Source: a phage. From it: DNA of 64,000 bases. The notes beneath the pieces were generated by a model. It saw nothing but the letters and a program-made list of their open reading frames with translations. It was not told the DNA's origin and searched no databases. The stretch lies in assembly GCA_033580375.1 (NCBI GenBank), contig GCA_033580375.1_4527.1; one strand, written 5' to 3'. Positions 3,688 to 64,000 of the stretch are shown piece after piece; position 1 is the first letter of the stretch; the number at the start of each line of letters is the position of its first letter. A program made the position numbers and the translations under genes.

Positions 3688-4718
3688 ATTTTAGAATACC
3701 GAGATAATCTCATTTTAGCATGCAACCCACTTGAAATATTCTGTTTCATATATTCTAAAATTTCTTGTGGTGTTGCATTTTCTTTCATTACCATATCATT
3801 CACATCCTTTGATCTCCATGGAGCTCTATCCCAGAACATGACACGTTCGCCTGCATCAACTAATCGCTTCATACGAGCTATAGTATCCGGATGCCTAGGT
3901 TCATTATCCATTACCCATACCCGACGTTCTTTAAATGGTACCACATCTAAATCTATTGAGCCGCCTGTAATAGCGATTGCATTAGGTATGAATAAACTAT
4001 CAATAGGGCCTTCCATTACCCAGACGTCTCCTTCCTTAACACGTTCAACACCATAAATTTTTGTTGCGGACTCAAAAGCTTTAATAGTGATATATTTTTG
4101 AGGAGCATCTTTGCGAAGTGCACGTCCTTGAAATGACTCGGCCTTCCCGTCTTTATTAAAAATAGGAATCACTAAACGCGGTTCGGGAATCTCTTTCTTA
4201 TACGTACCAGGTTGAATCTTGTTGACCAATTTAGGCCATTCTAATGTGAACCATAATCTGTTCCACGATTCTTTAGGAATACACCGAGACTTAACATATT
4301 TCACAATAGGATGCTCTTCAGGCAACTTGTCCAGACGAGAACAAGACGGCAAAGAATTTATAGTCTTTTTCTCCGGTTCTGGTTTATGTTCAGGAACCTT
4401 TTCGATCTTTGGTTCCATTCTAGCTTTTTCTTTACGAACTTCCATTAGATATTCGCGATAAAGCTCTTCGTCATACTCTTTTAAGTATCCAGAAATCGTA
4501 TTATGATATTGGCAGTTATAGCAATGCACATTACCTGGAGTACCGCCATAATACCATCCGCGGGCTTTCATTGCATCTGTCTGAGAGTCGCCACAAACTG
4601 GACAACGAAACGTTAATTTAAATGTGCTTGAATTATTGATTTGTCTAAAACGAGGTAGGTGAGAAAACGCACGATAAGCAAATTCATTATCTATCCATTC
4701 AGCCATAGTATTCTCCAA
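3684..4718 (-). CDS. 61: DNA primase gp61
   Basis: WIDNEFAYRA...NNSSTFKL.FRCPVCGDS..D..KARGWYYG zinc-ribbon N-terminus matches T4 gp61. Confidence 0.9.
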   Translation of the reverse strand: MENTMAEWIDNEFAYRAFSHLPRFRQINNSSTFKLTFRCPVCGDSQTDAMKARGWYYGGTPGNVHCYNCQYHNTISGYLKEYDEELYREYLMEVRKEKARMEPKIEKVPEHKPEPEKKTINSLPSCSRLDKLPEEHPIVKYVKSRCIPKESWNRLWFTLEWPKLVNKIQPGTYKKEIPEPRLVIPIFNKDGKAESFQGRALRKDAPQKYITIKAFESATKIYGVERVKEGDVWVMEGPIDSLFIPNAIAITGGSIDLDVVPFKERRVWVMDNEPRHPDTIARMKRLVDAGERVMFWDRAPWRSKDVNDMVMKENATPQEILEYMKQNISSGLHAKMRLSRYSKI

Positions 4719-5240: not shown

Positions 5241-5430
5241 TCACAAAGATCGCTTTATCGCCGTTCGCATCTGTGACTTCATATGTAGTGTCTTCATAGT
5301 GTGGAATATTCCAAATTACACCATCATTAGCTTTTACGCTAATATGACATTGGTGTTTTGAAACAACTTCATAATCTTCAAAACTTGTAAAAACACTAAT
5401 TTTAGAACCAGTGCAAATTGCAGTAGTCAT
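5233..5430 (-). CDS. hypothetical protein
   Basis: 65-aa ORF, tightly packed with neighbours. Confidence 0.4.
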   Translation of the reverse strand: MTTAICTGSKISVFTSFEDYEVVSKHQCHISVKANDGVIWNIPHYEDTTYEVTDANGDKAIFVID

Positions 5431-5431
5431 T

Positions 5432-6091
5432 TTAACCTCGATTCATAAATGCATTAAATATTTGGTCATCAACAGAAATTTCTAATTCGACTTCAATTGC
5501 TTCAGCCTTTTCTTCAGGTGGTAATTCGTATCCACACACTACAATTTTTTCATCGATATCAAAATATACAGAAGCAATATGATTAATGTTATTTTCAGTT
5601 AAGTCTAAATCAACATCAACATCTTTTTGACCTACACTTAAAGGATAACTAATACGGGTTATTTTATTATCTTTAACAAAGAGTCCACCAACATACTCTG
5701 TACTACGTTTGAAGTTTACACGTTTCCGAATTGAAAGATATGATGCATCTTTACCGTGGGCTCGGCTCATAGGACATAATGAATAACTAGAATAAGAGAT
5801 ATCAAATCCTACGCCTTCAACATGTGCCAGAGTATCATGAGTAAACCAATTATAGTCGTATGCCAAATCCATTAAATTATAATATGTGAATGGAACCGGA
5901 TTAACGTCATACGTTGTACCTTTAAAATCTGCCCAGGCAACGATTTCGTTATCTTTAACAATTACAAAAATTACACCAATATGGTATCCGTTATTATTTT
6001 CATTCGGCGTTATATTATAACATTGTGCATTAGGAAATTTACCATATTTAAATGGCGCGTTTTTGTGCATATAATAAATCATATTATTCAC
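5432..6091 (-). CDS. hypothetical protein
   Basis: 219-aa ORF, no recognisable motif. Confidence 0.5.
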   Translation of the reverse strand: MNNMIYYMHKNAPFKYGKFPNAQCYNITPNENNNGYHIGVIFVIVKDNEIVAWADFKGTTYDVNPVPFTYYNLMDLAYDYNWFTHDTLAHVEGVGFDISYSSYSLCPMSRAHGKDASYLSIRKRVNFKRSTEYVGGLFVKDNKITRISYPLSVGQKDVDVDLDLTENNINHIASVYFDIDEKIVVCGYELPPEEKAEAIEVELEISVDDQIFNAFMNRG

Positions 6092-7748: not shown

Positions 7749-8123
7749 TTAAAAACGTAATTTAGATATATCTGCGTTGATTTCGTTTTGGTTTGCGTCG
7801 TATGCAATTAAACGAACCGCTTTAGATGGGTCATTCAATGCATAGAAATGATGGAACATTGCTCGAACGATATCACCATTTACGAGTTCTACCTGGATAG
7901 GAGAACCTTTTTCGAGTTGGAAATGTTCATAAGCTTTGATGGTTCGCAGATAATCAAGTTTTTGATTTCCGGCTCCAACGATTTGTACGATACGTTTGCC
8001 CATGTTTTCCATACGAGATACAATAGTTTTAGGAGCAAGAATAACGTAGGTTGCCAGCGGAGAAACTACTTCAACAGTTGTGTTTTCGGTGATTGCAGTA
8101 AAAATTGCTTGAGACATATTCAT
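7749..8123 (-). CDS. hypothetical protein
   Basis: 124-aa ORF. Confidence 0.45.
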   Translation of the reverse strand: MNMSQAIFTAITENTTVEVVSPLATYVILAPKTIVSRMENMGKRIVQIVGAGNQKLDYLRTIKAYEHFQLEKGSPIQVELVNGDIVRAMFHHFYALNDPSKAVRLIAYDANQNEINADISKLRF

Positions 8124-8185
8124 AATGTTTTCCTCTTGGTTGGTGTAAGTACATCATATCATGCCTAGAGGAAGATGTAAACCCC

Positions 8186-11269: not shown

Positions 11270-11818
11270 TTAACGAGCCCATTTGATGATTTCTGTAATC
11301 AAATCATTACGTTCGCTTGCATTAAATCCTATAACTTTGTTAGCACCATCATGATTAAGTAATTGATACGTTTGGATTTTGTTATGAATTGCAAACTCTT
11401 CAAAATGTGAAATGACTGTATTAAAACTGAGTGAAGACAAAGTAATAAGATCGTCTTCAAAACTTTCAGTCATTTCGTTACGTGTTAAAATAATTGTGAA
11501 CACGTCATGGTTTTGGCAAAGACGAACATAATCCTGCTCATAAACATCAAGAACCGAGTCCGCATCTTGTCGAATACGTCCATAAACCCAGTTACTAATA
11601 TATCCACGGTCTAACAGATAAATCTTAGTAGGGTCTAAATAATTCAACATCGTTTCGAAACAACCAACTTCATTTCGAGACTTAACATCGAAACGTCCAT
11701 CAACTGTTCGTTTAGGGAAATCAATCTTTACATATCTTTCACTAATTTCCATTATGACATTAATGAAAGTTGTTTTGCCGGCATTATCTGGGCCATCTAC
11801 TAAAATAATTTTAGCCAT
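11270..11818 (-). CDS. thymidylate-kinase-like P-loop nucleotide kinase
   Basis: 182 aa; ILVDGPDNAGKTT Walker A and DRGYISNWVYG resembling the Tmk DR motif. Confidence 0.5.
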   Translation of the reverse strand: MAKIILVDGPDNAGKTTFINVIMEISERYVKIDFPKRTVDGRFDVKSRNEVGCFETMLNYLDPTKIYLLDRGYISNWVYGRIRQDADSVLDVYEQDYVRLCQNHDVFTIILTRNEMTESFEDDLITLSSLSFNTVISHFEEFAIHNKIQTYQLLNHDGANKVIGFNASERNDLITEIIKWAR

Positions 11819-11819
11819 T

Positions 11820-12716
11820 TTATTCCTCGATTACGACATCTTCGTATTTAGGTATATTATACGGCGAAGAAATTAAAGCATTAAAGTAGATGAACTCACC
11901 AAGACCTGGATGGAATACTTCTTCAGGATTTTCGAAATATTGAATCTTCGGACGTCCTTTAAGAATTTGATAGTACTCAGTTTTAGTTGGTTTAAAAATT
12001 CGAATCAGCGCTTCTTCAGGATACTTATTTCTGTCGAAGCTATTATTTGGATCGGTTATATAAAGTGGTTGTCCTAATTGAATTGCACATTCAACCACTT
12101 GTTCAAAATGATAACACGGATCACTAATTCGAAATGGATGAAAAATACCATCTACATGAATAGGAGCCAAATCACCTACAAGACGCTGCATGATGGAAGG
12201 ACGTATAACTTTCTGCGTTACGATAATCTTATTATCTGCGCCAGCGTTAACCAGCACTTCTTTTTGACGTTCATTCAACACAGTAGTTTGAAGTGAACGA
12301 TTAACCGACAACATGTCGGTTTTTAAGAATTCGTCAATATAAAAACGTGGTTTATTAGGGTCTGCAGTGATATTGAAATTGAATTCTACATCAAAAGCGC
12401 CGTCATATCCAGTGATATCTGTGATTAGAAAATCACAATCATAATAAGCAATTAATGAATCAACAACAAATTCATTTTCAGACCAGAAATATTTACGAGT
12501 GTTATACGCGTTATCTTTATACCATAATGGAACAAACTTAAATTCTGGGAAAAGACGTTCACATTCTTTAATATCAGATGCATTACGTGGATATGTAATC
12601 ACATCACCCGGATTAGCACGGTGCAAATGAAGTTGGAAGTTGCCATCCTTAAGGATAGCATACTGTCCAGTTTCATAAGACCGCATACTCAAGATTGGTA
12701 CGCGGAAAATAGCCAT
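11820..12716 (-). CDS. hypothetical protein at the T4 beta-gt position; candidate DNA-modifying transferase
   Basis: 298-aa ORF; no similarity to T4 beta-gt recognisable by eye. Confidence 0.45.
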   Translation of the reverse strand: MAIFRVPILSMRSYETGQYAILKDGNFQLHLHRANPGDVITYPRNASDIKECERLFPEFKFVPLWYKDNAYNTRKYFWSENEFVVDSLIAYYDCDFLITDITGYDGAFDVEFNFNITADPNKPRFYIDEFLKTDMLSVNRSLQTTVLNERQKEVLVNAGADNKIIVTQKVIRPSIMQRLVGDLAPIHVDGIFHPFRISDPCYHFEQVVECAIQLGQPLYITDPNNSFDRNKYPEEALIRIFKPTKTEYYQILKGRPKIQYFENPEEVFHPGLGEFIYFNALISSPYNIPKYEDVVIEE

Positions 12717-13432
12717 TAGTCAAGGAATCCTTTAACATAATCAAAATCACGTTCAAACACATGGGCACTTACCATGGTATGAGTATAATCACCAACTTCT
12801 ACACCGCATTCGTTAGCGATATAATGAAGTAATTTTCCTTGGAGATAAAAATCCAACTGCATAACAACAGCACAGTTCTGAGAACGCATATGACAGTGGG
12901 TATAAAGCTTACCATCACGAATATAATAAGTCACTGAGTCAGTACATGGATATTCAAGTGTTTCATCTGAATCAAGCAAAGCCTGATCAGAACTTTCTAG
13001 AATTTGGAACACAACTCTTCGAGAGTTAGGTTTTTCTTTAAGTTCTTTTAGAAGAGCTGGTAATTGAGCCGCAATGCGAGGACCATAGAAAGTGTTGAAG
13101 TTTGCAGGCAAAGCATCTGATTTTGGTTTAGAAATAAATTTAGCGACATTAGGATATGCCTTAAACGCTTCTTCTGCATCAGTACCACCGGAAATCATAA
13201 ACTTCCAGAAGTCTTCGGCATATTCATAAGATATGCGATTAATACGTGGGTCGGTCATTTTGAATGATGATGGAGTGTCAACAACTACTGTCATAGACCC
13301 AATTTCATTACAACGTCCAATACGAGAATCAGTTACGAATTCTGGGTTTTCTAAAATTTCACGATTGACTGCTTTAAATGCGGTTTGAAAATCTGCGGCT
13401 TTGATATATTTCATTGTGTTATGTTTTCCCAT
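12716..13432 (-). CDS. 42: dCMP hydroxymethylase gp42 (thymidylate-synthase fold)
   Basis: 238 aa; YPCTDSVTYYIRDGKL (catalytic Cys) and HMRSQNCAVVMQLDF resemble T4 gp42/ThyA motifs; syntenic position. Confidence 0.8.
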   Translation of the reverse strand: MGKHNTMKYIKAADFQTAFKAVNREILENPEFVTDSRIGRCNEIGSMTVVVDTPSSFKMTDPRINRISYEYAEDFWKFMISGGTDAEEAFKAYPNVAKFISKPKSDALPANFNTFYGPRIAAQLPALLKELKEKPNSRRVVFQILESSDQALLDSDETLEYPCTDSVTYYIRDGKLYTHCHMRSQNCAVVMQLDFYLQGKLLHYIANECGVEVGDYTHTMVSAHVFERDFDYVKGFLD

Positions 13433-13710
13433 GTTTACCTCAATACAATTTATTATATACTCAATTCGTAAAGCTTATTTGAATTTCTTGGCAATGTTGA
13501 TATAACGTAAAGCTTCAGCATCGATACTTCCAAGAACACTATGAAGAAATGCATCAGCTTAGTATTCTAATTGAACAGGTTCTTTAATCACTTTAGCCGC
13601 TTTGGTTTCAAACAGGCCCATAAGGGCCTTTTTAAGAATTTGTTCGTTAGTGTTCAGTTTCATAGTCAAAATCTCTTCATTAAGTTTATAATTAAAAGCT
13701 TTTCTAGAAA

Positions 13711-14871
13711 TCATTCCGGGTACCTCAAAGCGTCATCAGAGTTAGTTATATCAATAATAGATATGGAGTTTTCTGCTAACCCGTTTTTAGATAATTGACG
13801 TTTGTAATATCTTTCACAATATGTACACGTTGACCCACAGATTTCATTAGCACAATCGAAATCCGGATGTCTGAACCACCTTTTTTCTAAAAAGCCATCT
13901 AACAAAGAGGTTTCAATATTTACTGTATGTGAAAACTCAGTCTCATTTTCAAGAGTGAAAATAGTCTCTAAAGGCTTCCACAGTTCTAACAAATTACCTT
14001 CAAACTTTTCAGAAGCGTATGCTTCAAGAACTTTCAAAATGTAGTCTGTGCTACCTGTACGTCCTGAAACTTTGAATTGAGTGATACCAATATCATTATA
14101 AAGTTTCAAATCTTGAGGACGAACAAAACGAGTTCTCAGCCAGTTAAATGGGTCTGTATCACGAGCTTTAATGCAGTGTTGCATTGGATATCCATTTAAG
14201 GATTTAGCATCATCAGCGGTAACATCAGTACTATGGAAAATATAGCAAGAGTCACGATAACTACAATGTGTTGTATACCCTTTACCAGCATTAGAACAGA
14301 ACTCATTTACAAGAACTTCAAATATTATATTGTTCTTATTGCAAAACTCTGCTGCACGCTTCAGGAAAGAAACTGAACGGTTCTTATGAATTCCACAGCA
14401 GACCTTTTTGATATTATATTGGTCATGCAAGTATTTGATTTGAGTTACGGCATCAACATGTAGAATTGTTGAAACTTCAATCTCAATATCTTTATTGACT
14501 TCACGAACAATTTCCATAACAACAGGGTTAGCGATAGTAATACGCCATACACCTATTGACCAAAGATACTGAACATAATCCTGAATAGCTTTCTTCTTCC
14601 ACTCAACTAGTTCTCTTTTTGAACCAGGATTTATCGTGTTGAGTGTATAGTTAAAGCAAATACCTAATTCGTTACAACGTTTAACATAGTCTTCTAACAT
14701 TTTTTTGTCAACGTCAGGAAGCCTAAAATCAGGTCTGGCTGCTACAAAAGCCATTTCTCTTGTAGAGCCATATACTTCGTTTATCAAGCTATTAGGATAA
14801 GTTTTATTGAGCTCTACGATTTTATCAAGAAGAGCTAAATCAAAATTCGTTCCGATTTTAAAAGTATTCAT
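13711..14871 (-). CDS. hypothetical Cys-rich protein, function unknown
   Basis: 386 aa; C-terminal CANEICGSTCTYC cluster plus further conserved-looking Cys; lies between gene 42 and the sugar-nucleotide genes. Confidence 0.5.
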   Translation of the reverse strand: MNTFKIGTNFDLALLDKIVELNKTYPNSLINEVYGSTREMAFVAARPDFRLPDVDKKMLEDYVKRCNELGICFNYTLNTINPGSKRELVEWKKKAIQDYVQYLWSIGVWRITIANPVVMEIVREVNKDIEIEVSTILHVDAVTQIKYLHDQYNIKKVCCGIHKNRSVSFLKRAAEFCNKNNIIFEVLVNEFCSNAGKGYTTHCSYRDSCYIFHSTDVTADDAKSLNGYPMQHCIKARDTDPFNWLRTRFVRPQDLKLYNDIGITQFKVSGRTGSTDYILKVLEAYASEKFEGNLLELWKPLETIFTLENETEFSHTVNIETSLLDGFLEKRWFRHPDFDCANEICGSTCTYCERYYKRQLSKNGLAENSISIIDITNSDDALRYPE

Positions 14872-14929
14872 TTTTTTGCATCTCGCGTTAATTGATGCGA
14901 TGGGTTTTTTGCAGGTCTTACTTAAATTA

Positions 14930-15331
14930 TTATAGATTCGGTTTATACGATTTAAATGTTTCGAATTCGCCTTTATTCATAAGAGCTTTGAATTCGTCAG
15001 GACGCATAGCTTTGTCGTCGATAATCCAATCATATACTGGTTTATGTGTTAGCAAATTATGGTACTTCAAACCAATGTTTTCCAAGTTCTGAATCAGACT
15101 TGGGAGAATGTCAATTGCTATACGACCAGGACCTACTGACTTCATACCACGAGCAGTGTAAAGCGTTATGGTATGCCCTGCATCATACAGGGCATTAATG
15201 GCGGTCACCATTTCGACGTCTGGTTTGAAGTTCGCGTAATCACGATTGTTATTCCATTCCGTGATGCAATCATCGACATCAAAACAAAGATTAAGCATGT
15301 TTTCTACACGGCGCATTAGATTCGTTCCCAT
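14930..15331 (-). CDS. small HAD-superfamily sugar-phosphate phosphatase (KdsC/GmhB-like)
   Basis: 133 aa; FDVDDCI DxD nucleophile motif near N-terminus, TARG motif II. Confidence 0.55.
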   Translation of the reverse strand: MGTNLMRRVENMLNLCFDVDDCITEWNNNRDYANFKPDVEMVTAINALYDAGHTITLYTARGMKSVGPGRIAIDILPSLIQNLENIGLKYHNLLTHKPVYDWIIDDKAMRPDEFKALMNKGEFETFKSYKPNL

Positions 15332-17001
15332 TGATGAGTGATATCGCCACCGATTGGACGATAGGAAACACCAGTTTCTTTATCAGTTAGTACCCATTTA
15401 CCAGGATTTTTTGTAATCAGAGTAGCCGTTACAGGTTCTGCTACGTCATAACTAATAGAGCCGTCTTGAAGTACACGACCCATGTTACGTAATTGCTTAG
15501 TCAGAAGTTCCATACCTTTATAATATGCGGCTACCGCTTTAAGTGGATTATTCTTGAAATAACCACCTAATGCAATCCAGATAATCGCCACTGCCAAATG
15601 ATGATACTCGTTAAACGAACTCATCTTTCCATATTTGTAAACTAATGGATTGATGTTAATAGTCACATTACAAGTTGTTTCGTCAATAGTAAACTGTCCC
15701 CAGGTCGGATTAGCATTGAATTCATCATAACCTGAAACAGCATAAAGCACTTTAGCTTCATCGTACAATTTTGGCCCGTAAATCTTGGTTTCACCAAAAT
15801 ATCCACGAGGGTCGATAAACTTGACTTCGCCGTTATCAGTAATCATAGTATTACTGAAGTTCGGGTCACCGTGAATAACAGAGTACTGTCCCTGAGAACG
15901 GTTATGATAACGAATAAGGTGTTCTAAAGCTTGTTTCAACATTGGCTTCAGACGTCCAATCTTAGTGTAGTTCACATGTGTGATTTTACCAAATGAATCA
16001 ATCAATGGTTGAATGCTTTCACAACGATCAATAACTTTCGTATAGAATTCTTTAGTGAAATCACGACGAACAGTTTCAGGACTTACAAAATAAATGTCTG
16101 TGCTGAATTTCAGTGCATCTAAAATTGCATCAACAATTTGTGGACGAGCAAGACTTGATTTGGATTTAATATATTCAAATGCTGGCTTACCTTTAATGCG
16201 TTCCATTTCAAAGTTATTTTCATTAACAGAAACTAACTGAGGAACTGAATCTGATTTTACTTTCAAATACCATGAAATCTCATCTTTTTGAAGAGCTCGT
16301 CCCTGTTCTGTTAATGCGAATTTAGTTACAGTTTCTTCACCAATTTCAACTGCATTAAAACTACGATTAAGTTCACGAACTTCATGAGCCTTTTCAAGTT
16401 TAGGCATATCACCTAAATCAATTAGATTCATAAGCTCTGATTTATTGAATGCACTGCCGTAAAGGAATTCTACAAAATCACGTCCTTTACAGTATTCGTG
16501 AATTTCCTCGTCAGTAGAACCCATGTAGAATTCCCAGTCTTTGAACTGATAAATTCCTACAACATTACCGCCTGTTGAACCTACGTTAGTGATATTTTCA
16601 CCATCGAAATTATATCGACATTCATCACCCTTAACATAGATTGCGTTAACATTCCAAGACCATGAACCAAAATCTGGAATAATATCACACCAGTTAACAA
16701 CTACGTTATGGCCGTCTAAATCTTTATGTAATTTAGCAAGAGCATAAGCAGAACCATACGCTTCATCAACTGTACGAATAGTCACATTGAACCCTTCTTG
16801 CTCACAATAAGCTCGAACAGTTTCAGCAAATTTTGAATGAACTACTACAATAATTTCATCTGCACCAAGGTCAGAATAAATTGTATACAAATTGCTCAGA
16901 ATAGTGTCTTGTTTATAGTTCACAAGAACTTTTGGAATATGGTGAGTAATTGGATATAAACGAGTTGCCAGTCCAGCACCAAGAATAACAGCTTTTTTCA
17001 T
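15316..17001 (-). CDS. bifunctional sugar-1-phosphate nucleotidyltransferase (N-term) / APH-type sugar kinase (C-term)
   Basis: 561 aa; N-term ILGAGLATRLYPIT (RmlA/GalU-like G-x-G-x-R), C-term HGDPNFSN Brenner motif and FIDPRG as in choline/aminoglycoside-kinase fold. Confidence 0.65.
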   Translation of the reverse strand: MKKAVILGAGLATRLYPITHHIPKVLVNYKQDTILSNLYTIYSDLGADEIIVVVHSKFAETVRAYCEQEGFNVTIRTVDEAYGSAYALAKLHKDLDGHNVVVNWCDIIPDFGSWSWNVNAIYVKGDECRYNFDGENITNVGSTGGNVVGIYQFKDWEFYMGSTDEEIHEYCKGRDFVEFLYGSAFNKSELMNLIDLGDMPKLEKAHEVRELNRSFNAVEIGEETVTKFALTEQGRALQKDEISWYLKVKSDSVPQLVSVNENNFEMERIKGKPAFEYIKSKSSLARPQIVDAILDALKFSTDIYFVSPETVRRDFTKEFYTKVIDRCESIQPLIDSFGKITHVNYTKIGRLKPMLKQALEHLIRYHNRSQGQYSVIHGDPNFSNTMITDNGEVKFIDPRGYFGETKIYGPKLYDEAKVLYAVSGYDEFNANPTWGQFTIDETTCNVTININPLVYKYGKMSSFNEYHHLAVAIIWIALGGYFKNNPLKAVAAYYKGMELLTKQLRNMGRVLQDGSISYDVAEPVTATLITKNPGKWVLTDKETGVSYRPIGGDITHQWERI

Positions 17002-17042
17002 GTTGAAGTCCTCATTGGTAAGTAGGAGTATTGTACACTATT

Positions 17043-17186
17043 CTAGTTAAAGCATTCATACTTTGCTTGTAGTCCAATCATAATCCATCCAATTACAAGT
17101 GTTGGAATCATTACTGGAGCCGTTAAGCTCCAGTAGATAGTCATGACAAGCATCAATAGTAAAAGTCCTATTGTTATTGCTTTCAT
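17043..17186 (-). CDS. small hydrophobic peptide at the T4 imm position
   Basis: 47 aa, below track threshold; ATG with GAGG SD, entirely hydrophobic. Confidence 0.3.
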   Translation of the reverse strand: MKAITIGLLLLMLVMTIYWSLTAPVMIPTLVIGWIMIGLQAKYECFN

Positions 17187-17818
17187 TGCTCGCCTCGTAA
17201 CATGGCACCTAGAGCACCGCCAGGGTGGAACTTAAGGAAATCATTAGAGGTAAATCCACGTTCAGACGAAAGGTTGATAGCAAACGTATCGATAAGCGCT
17301 AACAACAATGTAGTGGACATGGTCGGAGCTAAAGAGTTCTCGTCAACTTCTACCGCGATACCGGTACAGAACGTATAATCAAAAAGAGCTTCGTATTCTT
17401 GCGGAATGTCAGGGTTACAATGTAACAGAATCTGTTTAACCTGAGGACGAATCATACGAAGATGTTTAGCAACACCTATCATTTCTTCAGTCTTACCAGA
17501 ACGACTGATGTGAACTAATACATCATTAGGTGCAATAAATCCTGCGTCGCCATGAGAATAATGCCCAGTGTTCAAATACATGCTAGGAATACCGAGTGAA
17601 GCAAATGTCTCAGAAGCTTTAGTTGCAATATTAGCATTCTTACCAACACCTGTAATAATTACACGACTTTCATAATTACTCAGTCCAGGGCGTCGAAGAG
17701 TTTCAAGAATAGCATTATAACGAGCAGGGTTTTGACTAATTACTTTGGCCATAGCGGCCAAAGAAGAAGCTTGTTTTATGATTGCGTCAATAGCGATAGT
17801 AATAGGAGTAGTTTTCAT
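17183..17818 (-). CDS. SIS-domain sugar-phosphate isomerase (KdsD/GutQ-like arabinose-5-phosphate isomerase, single domain)
   Basis: 211 aa; ITGVGKNANIATKASETFASLG...HGDAGFIAPNDVLVHISRSGKTEE matches KdsD-type SIS motifs. Confidence 0.65.
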   Translation of the reverse strand: MKTTPITIAIDAIIKQASSLAAMAKVISQNPARYNAILETLRRPGLSNYESRVIITGVGKNANIATKASETFASLGIPSMYLNTGHYSHGDAGFIAPNDVLVHISRSGKTEEMIGVAKHLRMIRPQVKQILLHCNPDIPQEYEALFDYTFCTGIAVEVDENSLAPTMSTTLLLALIDTFAINLSSERGFTSNDFLKFHPGGALGAMLRGEQ

Positions 17819-17858
17819 ATTTCTCTCATTTAATTAGTTTACCGTCCTTGGCATTATA

Positions 17859-50119: not shown

Positions 50120-50282
50120 ATTATTTCTCTTAAGGTTGGGGGCCATTCCATGGCGCATGAATTGTCCATTTCTGTATTTACCCATTACCGCACTTGGGCT
50201 CGACCTTATTACAGGTTGGCGGGAATCCCTCATAGAATCATGAGGTCCAGGTTGTTCCCATTTTATTTGAATGTAAATATTT

Positions 50283-50328
50283 TTGCCACGTGTTTACGAA
50301 TTATACCAAAAAAAAAACACGTGGCAAT
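50283..50328 (-). promoter_or_regulatory. sigma70-like promoter (TTGCCA-16-TGgTATAAT) inside a perfect 12-bp inverted repeat
   Basis: plus ttgccacgtgtt...aacacgtggcaa; minus strand reads TTGCCAcgtg-T10-gg-TATAAT. Confidence 0.45.
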
Positions 50329-50452
50329 TCACAGTATTCGGCGATTAAATGTTGATCAGCAAATTTAGATACTAAAGTCAAATTAATATAAGTCATTTAC
50401 CCATCCAAGTAATTATGAATATACTATCACAATTCTAGGAGAAAGTAAACTG

Positions 50453-50755
50453 TTATTTACCTTTAATTACTTTAGCTGCTTCGATAGCCGCTTGCTGAAG
50501 GTCATCCATAGACATACCGAATTTAGAAGCAAAGTTATCAATTTTCTTTTCGACAGCATTCAAAGGCTTGGCCTGTTTACCTTCATTAGCGCCAGGAAGA
50601 GCGAGAATACGCTCTTTGTCAATATAAAGGCTTACAAGTTTCTTACGGTCTTTATCGGACAAATCATGAAATGAATGGGCCTTTTTATTTATAGCGGCTT
50701 CTAATTTACCTGCACTCACTCGAGCTTCAGTAATAAATTCTTGATATGTTTTCAT
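50453..50755 (-). CDS. ipII: internal protein IPII-like (capsid-targeting N-terminus)
   Basis: 100 aa; N-terminal MKTYQEFITEA matches the T4 internal-protein targeting sequence cleaved by the prohead protease. Confidence 0.65.
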   Translation of the reverse strand: MKTYQEFITEARVSAGKLEAAINKKAHSFHDLSDKDRKKLVSLYIDKERILALPGANEGKQAKPLNAVEKKIDNFASKFGMSMDDLQQAAIEAAKVIKGK

Positions 50756-50796
50756 ATGTTTCCTTTAAATGTAAATAGGCCTATACTTAGACCTTA

Positions 50797-51375
50797 TTAA
50801 TTACCACGGGCTGCATTAGCAACGGCGTAAGCGTACTGAACATTAGCGTCTTTAAACGTACCTTTAGATGTATCTATTTCTGCCTTAAAGCCACCTTTAG
50901 CCATAACATCGGCAAATTCTTTACGGAAAGCCATTGCATCAAGACCTTTCCATGATGATTTATGCTTGGCAAATTCAAGACCAGCGTAGTTGACAGCTTT
51001 AGCTAATTTATTATCAATAACCCATTTACCGGCTTTAGGCACAAACTTCGGGCCTTTTTGTTTAGAGAACAGTTTTAAATTCCAGCGACGAAGGTCACTG
51101 TCGGCTTTAACAAAAGCTGCGTCTAAGTTACTAGCAACAACATCTTCAATATGAGCAAATTTAAGTCCGTCAACTTCAATATTTAGATCGTTACGCCAGC
51201 GTAGTCCTTCCCAAGCGAAGGCTTTAAAATCAGAAGCCTTTGTAGCTAAGTACCGTTCAATAGGAGCTGTTTTAGGGTCAAAGCCGTTTCCGCCACGATA
51301 AGTCCACTCGTCCTTATTAATGCCTTGAGCTTTTCCTGCAAAGGCCTCGGCGATAAATTCTTTATACGTTTTCAT
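50797..51375 (-). CDS. ipIII: internal protein IPIII-like
   Basis: 192 aa; N-terminal MKTYKEFIAEA. Confidence 0.65.
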   Translation of the reverse strand: MKTYKEFIAEAFAGKAQGINKDEWTYRGGNGFDPKTAPIERYLATKASDFKAFAWEGLRWRNDLNIEVDGLKFAHIEDVVASNLDAAFVKADSDLRRWNLKLFSKQKGPKFVPKAGKWVIDNKLAKAVNYAGLEFAKHKSSWKGLDAMAFRKEFADVMAKGGFKAEIDTSKGTFKDANVQYAYAVANAARGN

Positions 51376-51438
51376 TTTTGTTTCCTTGTTTGTTTTGATA
51401 GAGTAATTATACCATATTAATACTTAAGCGTAAACAAT

Positions 51439-51699
51439 TTAAGCTTTACCGCCAGAAATAATTCCGAAGTTGTTAAAATCGTATCCAATATCGTCAGCAT
51501 CTACTTTAGGACTTGCTACAACATAAGCAATTTCACTACGTTTTGCATAGGTGTTGATTTCTTTACCATCGCCACCTAAGAAAGAATACCCATTACGTTT
51601 TAATGAGCCAAAGTCTTCCGCATCACCAATGAAAGCTTTAACTTTAAATTTGGGGTCTTTGGCATCCGCTTCAGTGATAAATTCTTGATACATTTTCAT
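51439..51699 (-). CDS. internal-protein-like (CTS-bearing) small protein
   Basis: 86 aa; N-terminal MKMYQEFITEA. Confidence 0.55.
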   Translation of the reverse strand: MKMYQEFITEADAKDPKFKVKAFIGDAEDFGSLKRNGYSFLGGDGKEINTYAKRSEIAYVVASPKVDADDIGYDFNNFGIISGGKA

Positions 51700-51705
51700 T
51701 TTTCC

Positions 51706-52119
51706 TTAGTAAATTGATTTACCATAGTATTTGTACCAAGTGGGACGTTGAGCAATTTTTTCATCTAAGCGTGCTTGACTTATCGCAATGGACGCTTCGG
51801 ACGGGACATAATTATTACGAAATTCTACAGGAATGTCGGAAATATCCTGGACTGTCGTGTCCTTGATTTTGAAACCACGTTTCAAACATTCAGCTATTAG
51901 CTCGATTTGACGTAAACGTAAAAATTCGAGTTTGTCGTAAAAGAATGTTACGTGGCCCGTGCCTAAAATAAATGTTGGAGAGATTTTAAAATCTTTTACA
52001 CGTTTACCATTTTGAACATGTTTACGGACTGCACCGAATACACGAGGTAATTCACGATACTCAGCCATAAGATGTTGGTCGGTCAGTTCAGAAACAAGTG
52101 TTAAATTGATACGGGTCAT
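51706..52119 (-). CDS. denV: endonuclease V (pyrimidine-dimer DNA glycosylase) DenV
   Basis: [91 protein letters not shown] near-identical to T4 DenV. Confidence 0.9.
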
Positions 52120-52177
52120 AATTTCCTCCAAGTAGTTGATAGATGTATAGTATCAAAACCCTTGGAGGAAGTAAACA
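52120..52177 (-). promoter_or_regulatory. early promoter with inverted repeat (cctccaag / cttggagg)
   Basis: minus GTTTACttCCTCCAAGggttttgatactatacatctatcaactaCTTGGAGG. Confidence 0.45.
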
Positions 52178-52459
52178 CTATTTTTCTGAAGCGCCTGAAA
52201 TATATTTTTCAAGACGTTGTTTCATCAGCGAGCCGTTCTTAGCGATTTCTTCGGGTTTATCGCACATACGCAACAGTGCTTCAAGCTTAACGATATCACT
52301 GGTGCGCTCAAATTTGCGAGTATCTATCTTACTGGCAAGTTCAGAAATACGTGCTAATAGACTTTCAGCTTCGACCAAAGCTGCACCTAGCTTAGTTGCA
52401 AATGTGTCAGTAGCTTCATTAAGAATAGATTCTGATAAAAATTCATTATATGTTTTCAT
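52178..52459 (-). CDS. internal-protein-like (CTS-bearing) protein
   Basis: [11 protein letters not shown] from ATG 52459, which overlaps the lysozyme TGA (ATGA). Confidence 0.5.
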
Positions 52460-60403: not shown

Positions 60404-60967
60404 TTATTTACCTAGTTTAGTTATTATAGCTTCGGCAGCAGCTTTTAGCTTAGATGCAGTGTTAATACGATTTTTAATTTCAGTATACGCATCGCCAAGA
60501 ACATCAAGGCTATCAGAATAAACACTTACACTATTGCGTTCGCTATTTGAAATAGAACCTTTAGTTTTACGATCAAAATCAGTGTACACGTCTTGAAGAT
60601 CACGGGCTGCCTTCTTTGCATCATCCAATGCATCAAGAGCTTTATTCAAAGCATTGACATATTTTTTAGTGTCAAACATATTCTTAGAAATTTTAACAGG
60701 TGCACGTTCAGGAGTAGCTAAGGCGGATTTAGGAACCTGCGTGCCAGATGCCAGTTTCTTAGAAATTTTGAAAAACGCTTTATTGAAACTATTTTCTTGA
60801 CTCATCGTAAAAGAACTAGTATCGATGTTATACATTTCAATAGCTTTAGCTTTCCACTTAAGAAAATCGCCACGGTCTTTTGGATCCAAGTTGAAGAATA
60901 CTTTAGTAAGATCTGCTTCAGATGGTAATTTTGCTGCTTCGGTTAAAAATTCGGCGTAGGTTTTCAT
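60404..60967 (-). CDS. internal-protein-like (CTS-bearing) protein
   Basis: 187 aa; N-terminal MKTYAEFLTEA. Confidence 0.55.
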   Translation of the reverse strand: MKTYAEFLTEAAKLPSEADLTKVFFNLDPKDRGDFLKWKAKAIEMYNIDTSSFTMSQENSFNKAFFKISKKLASGTQVPKSALATPERAPVKISKNMFDTKKYVNALNKALDALDDAKKAARDLQDVYTDFDRKTKGSISNSERNSVSVYSDSLDVLGDAYTEIKNRINTASKLKAAAEAIITKLGK

Positions 60968-63420: not shown

Positions 63421-63423
63421 CCT

Positions 63424-63687
63424 TTATTTCAAATATATTGCGTATTTTTTATAGCCACCAGGCTCATGTCGAAGACCTTTATCATTCGCAAAACGTTGAA
63501 TGTTATTGAACTGATTTTCGTCAAGTTCGGATGTGTCAAATATGAAAAAGTTTCGTTTGTTACCAAGCGTGATATGCGGAGTTAAGTCAATGTTATACAA
63601 ATTAAGAATATCAGCAATAACCTGATTGACCGCTTTGTTAATTTTCACACCAGACGATTCTGAGATGAATTCGTTGAAAGTTTTCAT
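63424..63687 (-). CDS. internal-protein-like (CTS-bearing) small protein, possibly IPI-like
   Basis: MKTFNEFISES from ATG 63687; located just past the tRNAs, where ipI lies in T4. Confidence 0.5.
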   Translation of the reverse strand: MKTFNEFISESSGVKINKAVNQVIADILNLYNIDLTPHITLGNKRNFFIFDTSELDENQFNNIQRFANDKGLRHEPGGYKKYAIYLK

Positions 63688-63712: not shown

Positions 63713-63750
63713 TAGGACTACTATAACATAGTCCTACAAAGATGTAAACT
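63713..63750 (-). promoter_or_regulatory. early promoter with TAGGACTA / TAGTCCTA inverted repeat
   Basis: ttaggactactataacatagtcctacaaagatgtaaac. Confidence 0.55.
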
Positions 63751-64000
63751 ATTTTATGCCTTTAGATGAAATAGTGTTCTGGCGTTTAACCCCAGTTTGT
63801 GAAAAATCATGGTTATCAATTTGGTCAACTCGCATAACACCAAACGCAGATTTAATTTTGGCCTTTGAACCTTTTTTGATACTAATTACCATATAAGTGT
63901 CATTTTTCTTATATTCGTAATTTGATACTTCAACGCCTTGATTAGAAATTGACTTAATAATAGCATTAGCGTATTCATCATCTAACGGGCCGTTAGTGTT
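63745..64000 (-). CDS. hypothetical protein, C-terminal fragment (start beyond window end)
   Basis: open frame from window edge to TAA at 63745 (...KGSKAKIKSAFGVMRVDQIDNHDFSQTGVKRQNTISSKGI). Confidence 0.4.

Follow-up and report, generated by a model that had tools for sequence, protein, structure and literature searches.

An internal-protein locus of T-even type in an RB69-like Mosigvirus, with cassette breakpoints in the leader codons

Introduction

The internal proteins (Ips) of T-even phages reportedly form diverse cassettes with the leader alone in common, as described from Repoila et al. 1994 onward. This leader, the capsid-targeting sequence (CTS), reads MK-T-[Y/F]-x-E-F, with residues 4 (Y/F) and 7 (F) being critical, according to the summary of Mullaney & Black 1996 in PMC9026906. 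T4 Ip1, Ip2 and Ip3 are inhibitors of type IV restriction enzymes of the GmrSD type, each acting on a different one (Silas et al. 2025, PMC12373910), T4 IPI (IPI*), the inhibitor of GmrSD-CT596, being the paradigm of the class. Inhibition of GmrSD-ECOR21/BrxU has been shown for T4 Ip2 only (PMC12373910), and that of the two-gene GmrSD of ECOR17 for T4 Ip3 only (PMC12373910, PMC9391042). GmrSD also cleaves the DNA of RB69, to which its own IPI gives protection (PMC6024577). The standard view holds the Ip locus to be a reservoir of injected anti-defence proteins (PMC3012670, PMC2839356, PMC12373910).

Here we analyse an Ip locus within a 64-kb stretch of phage DNA (the window). The locus is real but ordinary, a re-identification of the textbook T-even internal proteins with their already known leader and anti-type-IV role, to which the analysis adds breakpoints in leader codons at two loci, a denV remnant that reveals the origin of the ipIII-ipII-denV' block, and a leader-bearing 187-aa gene at a third locus. 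The account given below is based on gene identity, leader, cleavage motif, synteny, orthology and recombination breakpoints; packaging, processing, injection and the inhibition of GmrSD by T4 Ip1-3 come from the literature, from which we infer the same for this phage and for its 86-aa and 93-aa proteins.

Layout of the locus

The window belongs to a Mosigvirus of the RB69-like kind (~97% nucleotide identity). Homologs of RB69 gp45-55 are found at ~11.3-17.8 kb, again with ~97% nucleotide identity, and the gp45-55-type cluster of RB69 has been tied to arabosylated 5-hydroxycytosine (PMC13326640), which bears out the suggestion in the preliminary description that the DNA modification is of a non-T4 type. 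The gp21 and scaffold genes are located beyond the window; because complete Mosigvirus genomes ~97% identical to it are T4-type (Straboviridae, Tevenvirinae), a gp21 protease and a gp22 scaffolding core are expected in this phage.

By gene content and order, the region is identifiable as the ipII/ipIII-denV-e internal-protein locus of an RB69-like Mosigvirus, which is a known T-even type. Its features are the following.

50301..50396, minus strand: second copy of denV, a frameshifted 5' remnant with a T4-type early promoter, downstream of ipII (a 31-aa ORF aligns to the T4 ipII-denV junction including the promoter)
50453..50755, minus strand: ipII (Ip2) ortholog, 100 aa (93% amino acid identity to T4 IPII over 100/100 residues, E 4e-66)
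50797..51375, minus strand: ipIII (Ip3) ortholog, 192 aa (92.7% amino acid identity to T4 IPIII over 192 residues, E 6e-136)
51439..51699, minus strand: RB69 ORF125-type internal protein, 86 aa (95% to RB69 ORF125; PHROG 2667 'internal head protein', E 1e-21)
51706..52119, minus strand: denV, endonuclease V, a pyrimidine-dimer glycosylase and a non-Ip gene within the cluster (79% nucleotide identity to T4 denV; annotated as denV in relatives)
52178..52459, minus strand: Ip5-like/RB69 ORF127-type internal protein, 93 aa (92% to RB69 ORF127; PHROG 3499, E 1e-46)

The four Ip ORFs have their ATGs at 50755, 51375, 51699 and 52459, so that the numbers by which they had initially been designated (50453, 50797, 51439 and 52178) are stop-codon ends on the minus strand. 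The order of transcription is e, Ip5-like gene, denV, ORF125-type Ip gene, Ip3, Ip2, denV' remnant and vs.8. With vs.8 and e/nudE as flanks and denV inside, the locus is collinear with those of T4 and RB69, and the four-gene cluster belongs to the recognised Ip loci (denV-ipII-ipIII-e or tRNA.4-ipI-57B). All four genes recur in hundreds of sequenced phages, with 92-100% conservation of the proteins.

A common leader on otherwise unrelated proteins

The common N-terminus claimed for the four ORFs was confirmed as a 10-residue leader, MK[TM]YxEF[IL]xE (MKTYQEFITEA in the 100-aa, MKTYKEFIAEA in the 192-aa and MKMYQEFITEA in the 86-aa protein). In a six-frame translation of the window, the wider pattern MK[TM][YF]xEF[ILV]xE was matched six times, in each case at the start of a minus-strand ORF, against a chance expectation of ~2e-5 matches calculated from amino-acid frequencies and none in 20 shuffles. 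Beyond the four, the window contains two more complete CTS-bearing ORFs and the 3' part of another.

60404..60967, minus strand: CTS-bearing ORF, 187 aa, MKTYAEFLTE↓AAK (↓, predicted cleavage; found by the CTS scan; PHROG 2280 'unknown function')
63424..63687, minus strand: Ip9-like internal protein, 87 aa, MKTFNEFISE↓SSG, at the T4 ipI position (71% to VR5 ip9; PHROG 7673)
63749..64000, minus strand: 3' part of an RB69 ORF156-type CTS protein, cut by the window end (matches the mature region of RB69 ORF156; 93% nucleotide identity)

What had been presented as a cluster of four does comprise four genes, but they are interrupted by denV and accompanied by these further CTS ORFs. The critical residues Y/F4 and F7 are kept in all six leader ORFs, and a ribosome-binding sequence (AGGA/AAGGA) lies just 5' of the ATG in four of them (ipII, ipIII, ip86 and ip187). 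Residues 8-11 of the four cluster ORFs read ITE↓A, IAE↓A, ITE↓A and LSE↓S, with (L/I)xE↓(A/S) as the predicted site of the gp21 prohead protease, and five of the six leader ORFs have a single [LIV]xE↓[ASGT] site, after residue 10. Leader, cleavage motif, PHROG assignment and orthology to T4 agree with the earlier reading of the genes as internal-protein genes of T4 type.

Also correct was the view that the proteins are unrelated beyond the leader: all-vs-all BLASTP of the ORFs aligned essentially the leader (~11 residues at high identity), the longer alignments having low identity and E >= 1e-4. Because only ~30 nt are common to the four genes, the word 'paralogous' that was applied to them is misleading. 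No Pfam match above threshold was obtained for any of the six leader proteins. Compared with T4 and RB69 IPI, the alignments of the four ORFs beyond the leader reached ~25-27% identity at E >= 0.003, and no convincing mature-domain similarity to T4 IPI* was found in them, the packaging and processing logic being alike.

Orthologs of T4 Ip2 and Ip3

The 100-aa and 192-aa ORFs are full-length orthologs of T4 IPII and IPIII, respectively. Cleavage within MKTYQEFITE↓ARV would give a mature Ip2 of 90 aa with a pI of 9.7, and cleavage within MKTYKEFIAE↓AFA a mature Ip3 of 182 aa with a pI of 9.6. The former protein falls into PHROG 7857 ('internal virion protein', E 4.5e-55) and the latter into PHROG 5341 (E 8e-118); the 100-aa gene is labelled ipII or internal head protein in mogra, phi25-307 and JS09. 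A PDB sequence search with the two orthologs found no solved relative.

The Ip2 ortholog resembles T4 IPII along its full length, including leader and cleavage site, and likewise has ipIII as its neighbour. In contrast to T4, which has glucosyl-hmC, it resides in a Mosigvirus genome with an RB69-type arabinosylation cluster, and it lies downstream of denV, not upstream, the denV remnant marking the import. The Ip3 ortholog follows the leader logic of T4 IPIII, but its leader is MKTYKEFIAE, as in RB69 ORF124c, instead of the MKTYQEFIAE of T4; its presence on a T4-like ipIII would fit a crossover within the leader. From their orthology, the expected targets are GmrSD of the ECOR21/BrxU type for the 100-aa protein and the two-gene GmrSD of the ECOR17 type for the 192-aa protein.

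The 86-aa and 93-aa proteins

The 86-aa protein corresponds to RB69 ORF125 also in that its gene has denV on one side and the variable cassettes on the other, with no substantive difference. Its leader, MKMYQEFITE↓ADA, would leave a mature protein of 76 aa that is acidic (predicted pI 5.2), in contrast to the basic T4 Ips. The family comprises 218 phage records, all T4-like, and a HMMER search of the mature domain against 1.8 billion representative proteins retrieved T4-like relatives only, as fragments and one distant 99-aa protein, which is itself leader-bearing (MQTFHEFLVE). Two large repeat proteins of 2017 and 417 aa that also matched the domain are regarded as repeat- or composition-driven matches and not as homologs. 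The AlphaFold2 model, built on a 7-sequence alignment, was unusable (pLDDT 52.8) and gave no functional clue.

The 93-aa protein is a member of the Ip5 family: aligned over 90% of its length, it is 47.6-51.2% identical to the PP01 and T2 versions of Ip5 (E 1e-14 to 1e-17). The ATG of its gene and the TGA that ends gene e overlap (ATGA). Candidate cleavage sites follow residues 10, 15 and 30, the 10-residue leader being continued by ↓SILNE↓ATD; the second, LNE↓A at residues 13-16, is kept in variants of the protein without the first LxE site, and a leader followed by a conserved LNE↓A is shared with Ip5 (T2, PP01 and AR1; Repoila nomenclature) and RB69 ORF127, as is the predicted all-helical structure. 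The mature form is basic (pI 8.1). AlphaFold2 returned an all-helical model (pLDDT 73, pTM 0.36), for which Foldseek against the PDB gave a single, meaningless match (E 9.4) and no fold match. The differences from the relatives concern position and leader: the gene lies here between e and denV, unlike T2 ip5, which is at ~70.2 kb of its record, presumably the ipI-57B locus, and the RB69 record of ORF127 has a doubly frameshifted leader (MKTYMNFYQNLSLNEA).

Leader-bearing genes at two further positions

The 187-aa ORF lies at a third locus, flanked by the e.8 homolog and the rnaC/tRNA region. Its family is represented in 165 phage records, and among the matches listed 30 of 30 were hypothetical, 'Phage protein' or unannotated; RB69 ORF149c is a truncated copy of the gene. 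At the ipI position, the window has the Ip9-like gene where RB69 has an IPI homolog.

Cassette exchange at leader codons

Identity to RB69 ends at position 50219 and returns (96.6%) at 51347, within CTS codons and opposite the CTS of RB69 ORF124c. The stretch between these positions is T4-like at 87-92%, compared with 71-80% in the flanks: positions 50282-50777 are 87% identical to 5247-5741 of the T4 record compared, and identity to T4 is 92% across 50799-51387, the ipIII stretch. The junction is located as follows.

51346..51387, minus strand: cassette junction from RB69-like to T4-like sequence, in the ipIII leader codons and ribosome-binding site (nucleotide identity profile)

The 5' remnant of denV shows that the ipIII-ipII-denV' block is derived from an arrangement of T4 type. 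The possibility that ipII with a denV remnant is unique to this phage was rejected, as JS09, pEK20 and AV110 have the same remnant and arrangement at 97-98% identity. Relative to RB69, the Ip9-like gene has one breakpoint at 63421 and another, within CTS codons, at 63661. Cassette-swap breakpoints thus fall in leader codons at two loci, which illustrates how cassettes pass between phage genera with the leader as the handle for recombination. The number of CTS cassettes at the ipII/ipIII locus is six in phi25-307, four in RB69 and two in T4.

Proposed function and alternatives

The explanation that we strongly favour is that of an injected Ip locus, a cassette-swapping array of leader-targeted inhibitors of type IV enzymes. 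The 10-residue CTS on each Ip would provide affinity for the prohead scaffolding core, after which a prohead protease of the T4 gp21 type would cleave behind Glu10 (I/L-x-E↓A/S), with an alternative cut behind Glu15 (LNE↓A) possible in the 93-aa protein. The mature Ip would be retained in the head, enter the cell with the injected DNA, and bind and block one particular member of the GmrSD family of modification-dependent type IV restriction enzymes. Cassettes would be gained, lost and swapped by homologous recombination in the common leader, ribosome-binding site and promoter segment. The anti-restriction role which the preliminary description gave for a T4 internal protein is the published function of Ip1, Ip2 and Ip3 (PMC12373910). 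Its proposal of a diversified set suited to new anti-defence proteins agrees with the standard reservoir view, but the set itself is not new: two members are T4 Ip2 and Ip3 orthologs at ~93% and two belong to existing internal-head-protein families. Points that weigh against the favoured explanation are the acidic mature 86-aa protein, the uninformative structure predictions, the negative result with ip4-10 described below and the absence of a canonical late promoter directly 5' of the four genes. In the literature, we found no useful proteome of Mosigvirus virions in which these proteins are covered.

For the 86-aa and 93-aa proteins, analogy would suggest a block of other GmrSD-like enzymes or other first-line defences. 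It is possible, although we lean against it, that these two and the 187-aa protein are injected and inhibit defences with which no Ip has so far been connected. There would then be at least seven such proteins, with Ip-type anti-defence genes at three loci instead of the two described, and the targets could be type IV enzymes recognising arabinosylated 5-hydroxycytosine or non-GmrSD first-line systems.

A narrower reading, which we consider rather unlikely, assigns anti-restriction to Ip2 and Ip3 only and makes the 86-aa and 93-aa proteins injected effectors against non-GmrSD targets, namely other immediate-early defences or host take-over. All three characterised Ips target one enzyme family, the diversity of GmrSD far exceeds the panel of 15 groups against which ip4-10 gave no reproducible new pair (PMC12373910), and RB69-type DNA is a substrate of GmrSD (PMC6024577). 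The result with ip4-10, which by numbering include ip5, nevertheless speaks for this reading and leaves GmrSD as only a putative target of Ip5-like proteins; that screen used only phages with glucosyl-hmC. In the same direction point the lack, outside the leader, of any similarity between Ip1-3 and either of the two proteins, and a 43-kb phage not of T4 type in which a leaderless homolog of the Ip9-like mature domain is encoded in the company of small early accessory genes, which shows that a mature Ip domain can function without being packaged.

The Ips might instead be mainly structural, abundant core parts that aid prohead assembly or neutralise or organise DNA, as would suit the basic mature forms of Ip2, Ip3 and the 93-aa protein, the ~1000 Ip molecules embedded in T4 DNA (PMC3012670) and the fact that Ips join the prohead core before the DNA is packaged (PMC9026906). 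We regard a structural role without specific anti-defence activity as very improbable. Infection of ECOR17 needs ipIII and is restored by plasmid-borne IpIII without its CTS (PMC9391042), which therefore acts in the cytoplasm; the T4 Ip genes are described as non-essential, and every T4 Ip is specific for a single GmrSD variant, which it blocks (PMC12373910); near-identical phages differ freely in cassette content, which is atypical for structural parts, and the 86-aa protein is acidic. Finally, a chance or low-complexity coincidence of N-termini, with some ORFs not being genes, has nothing but small ORF size in its favour and is refuted by the six matches, all at ORF starts, the ribosome-binding sequences and overlap with the e stop, and the conservation across hundreds of phage genomes with dedicated PHROG families.

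The practical yield consists of the leader-tagged 86-aa, 93-aa, 187-aa and Ip9-like candidates in a phage with arabinosyl- rather than glucosyl-type modification, and these four are obvious candidates for an Ip-versus-GmrSD screen of the published style.

Regulatory elements

Two candidate elements were noted between the genes.

51406..51434, minus strand: early-promoter-like site upstream of ipIII, with a GTTTAC-type -35 and a TG-extended TATAAT (consensus match only, 10/12 with TG)
50777..50794, minus strand: putative stem-loop between ipIII and ipII (terminator-like match)

A scan for sigma-70-type promoters found 9, compared with 8.4 expected from shuffles, with no overall excess, so that the candidate early promoters rest on their likeness to T4 GTTTAC...TATAAT and on the T4 ipII-denV alignment. 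Promoter and stem-loop elements have been described at Ip loci (PMC2839356), with which the stem-loop is consistent. No canonical T4 late promoter (TATAAATA) was found directly upstream of any of the four Ip genes; the single one in the region lies inside ipII.

Leader-tagged genes in the window

The cluster of four small genes encoding T4-type internal proteins (Ip) lies where the preliminary description had placed it, with all four ORFs on the minus strand, and is broken up by denV, which that description had passed over. Two further ORFs carry the N-terminal capsid-targeting leader, and a third leader-bearing gene, of the RB69 ORF156 type, is cut by the end of the window and would be a seventh Ip gene.

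Leader-bearing genes and associated features of the window (vertical bar, predicted prohead-protease cut)
50301-50396, minus: second denV copy, a frameshifted 5′ remnant of 31 codons with a T4-type early promoter, downstream of ipII
50453-50755, minus: 100-aa Ip ORF (ipII), N-terminus MKTYQEFITEA
50797-51375, minus: 192-aa Ip ORF (ipIII), N-terminus MKTYKEFIAEA
51439-51699, minus: 86-aa Ip ORF, N-terminus MKMYQEFITEA
51706-52119: denV
52178-52459, minus: 93-aa Ip ORF, with the ATG at 52459 being the start annotated in relatives
60404-60967, minus: 187-aa ORF preceded by a ribosome-binding site and starting with a perfect leader (MKTYAEFLTE|AAK); flanked by the e.8 homolog on one side and the rnaC/tRNA region on the other
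63424-63687, minus: 87-aa Ip9-like gene, in the T4 ipI position instead of IPI
63749-64000, minus: RB69 ORF156-type leader-bearing protein, 3′ part only

The start codon (ATG) of the 93-aa gene and the stop codon of e overlap; the automatic ORF call places the start at a TTG further upstream (52474). Translating the window in six frames gave six matches to the pattern MK[TM][YF]xEF[ILV]xE, all of them minus-strand ORF starts; ~2 × 10−5 would be expected by chance from residue frequencies, and none was found in 20 shuffles. The leader agrees with the capsid-targeting sequence of T4, and residues 4 and 7, reported to be critical for targeting in T4 (PMC9026906), are kept in all six ORFs. In all-against-all BLASTP, ~11 leader residues of the four clustered proteins align at high identity and longer alignments are of low identity (E ≥ 10−4). 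The proteins were thus rightly described as unrelated beyond the tag, and for the same reason 'paralogous' is an ill-fitting word for their genes.

No new sequence is found among the four. The 100-aa and 192-aa proteins are 93% and 92.7% identical to T4 IPII and IPIII, and the 86-aa and 93-aa proteins are 95% and 92% identical to RB69 ORF125 and ORF127, respectively; the last also shares 48-51% identity with the Ip5 annotated in PP01 and T2. Each of the four matches a PHROG family labelled internal virion/head protein, and the 86-aa and 93-aa families occur in 218 and 497 phage records, respectively, all T4-like. In several deposited genomes (e.g. mogra_155, at 4045-4299 of the mogra record), the start of the 86-aa gene is placed at an internal methionine, which strips the first leader residues and leaves the label 'hypothetical protein'; such inconsistent annotation masks the Ip nature of the gene. 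Pfam yielded no match above threshold, the PDB held no solved relative of Ip2 or Ip3, and exhaustive HMMER searching with the mature domain of the 86-aa protein brought up nothing beyond T4-like relatives and repeat proteins that are spurious matches. The AlphaFold2 model of the 86-aa protein was unusable (pLDDT 52.8), and that of the 93-aa protein, modest and all-helical, had no fold match in the PDB. An early-promoter-like site precedes ipIII, and no canonical late promoter was found ahead of the four genes.

Cassette exchange at the denV locus

The window is 96.9% identical to RB69 up to 50219, where the identity breaks, and 96.6% identical from 51347, a position within the ipIII leader codons that aligns with the leader of RB69 ORF124c. 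The intervening segment is T4-like, with 87% identity to T4 over ipII and the denV 5′ end and 92% over ipIII; the genes on either side of the segment reach just 71-80%. The frameshifted denV remnant and the T4-type early promoter downstream of ipII show that the ipIII-ipII-denV′ block derives from an arrangement of the Tequatrovirus type; the remnant is a fossil of its import from a T4-type genome. JS09, pEK20 and AV110 share this remnant, so that ipII with the denV remnant is an established Mosigvirus variant rather than an oddity of one phage. JS09 annotates the remnant as a small 'endonuclease V' CDS. The number of Ip cassettes at the locus varies from two in T4 to four each in RB69, mogra and the window and six in phi25-307, in line with earlier work that describes Ip loci as hot spots of shuffling, with promoter/stem-loop elements and >30 Ip variants (PMC2839356; PMC3012670).

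The ipI locus and a third locus

The ipI locus repeats this pattern: the break in RB69 identity runs from 63421, just beyond the 87-aa gene's stop codon, to 63661, within the leader codons of that gene. With the Ip9-like gene occupying the ipI position, the window has no IPI homolog. A leaderless 72-aa homolog of the Ip9-like mature domain (~57% identity) is the first gene in a series of small ORFs in Bas70, a phage of 43 kb that is not T4-like (2507-2725 of the stretch L006), suggesting that Ip mature domains circulate as free-standing accessory genes, gaining or losing the leader.

The 187-aa gene occupies a third locus, additional to the two Ip loci known from the literature, and its product is probably an unrecognised internal protein. 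The gene has matches in 165 records from Tequatrovirus and Mosigvirus, nearly all of them ≥95% identical, and among the matches listed all 30 were hypothetical, 'Phage protein' or in a record without annotation. The protein falls into PHROG 2280 ('unknown function'), and RB69 ORF149c is a truncated copy of the gene.

Probable DNA modification and anti-restriction function

Across the Ip region, nucleotide identity to many Mosigvirus genomes (mogra, phi25-307, phiE142, RB69) is 96-97%. Homology justifies the claim of a different DNA modification: the window contains, at ~11270-17820, homologs of RB69 gp45-55 (~97% nucleotide identity), a block assigned to the synthesis of arabinosylated 5-hydroxycytosine (2026 paper, PMC13326640), and the phage DNA is therefore probably arabinosylated, not glucosylated.

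In T4, Ip1, Ip2 and Ip3 enter the cell by injection along with the DNA. Each blocks its own GmrSD-family type IV enzyme, CT596 for Ip1, ECOR21/BrxU for Ip2 and the two-gene ECOR17 system for Ip3, with no cross-protection (PMC12373910). T4 requires ipIII on ECOR17, and plasmid-borne leaderless ipIII works (PMC9391042); RB69 DNA is a GmrSD substrate, and its own IPI homolog protects the phage (PMC6024577). By orthology, these published roles assign the Ip2 and Ip3 functions, GmrSD inhibition, to the 100-aa and 192-aa proteins. For the 86-aa and 93-aa proteins we infer, only by analogy with Ip1-3, that they may have a comparable target; Ip4-10 gave no reproducible new pair against 15 GmrSD groups (Silas et al., PMC12373910). 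The anti-restriction reading proposed for the cluster is correct in kind, but it is the established view, with targets experimentally defined in T4 for two of the four genes; the observation itself is confirmed. What retains value is the list of leader-tagged proteins lacking known targets in an arabinosylating phage, the 187-aa protein included.

Predicted processing sites

Each protein has the predicted cut motif (I/L)xE|(A/S) after residue 10; in the 93-aa protein it is followed by another predicted site, LNE|A, after residue 15. This second site is retained in variants without the first and recalls T4 IPI, cut after residue 19. In RB69 ORF127 (7849-8130 of the RB69 record; window 52178-52459), MKTYMNFYQNLSLNEA replaces a 16-residue stretch common to the window and most relatives. 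This difference looks like a −1/+1 double frameshift inside the leader of the RB69 sequence; it could reflect faulty sequencing, or the first cleavage site could really have been lost, with LNE|A kept.
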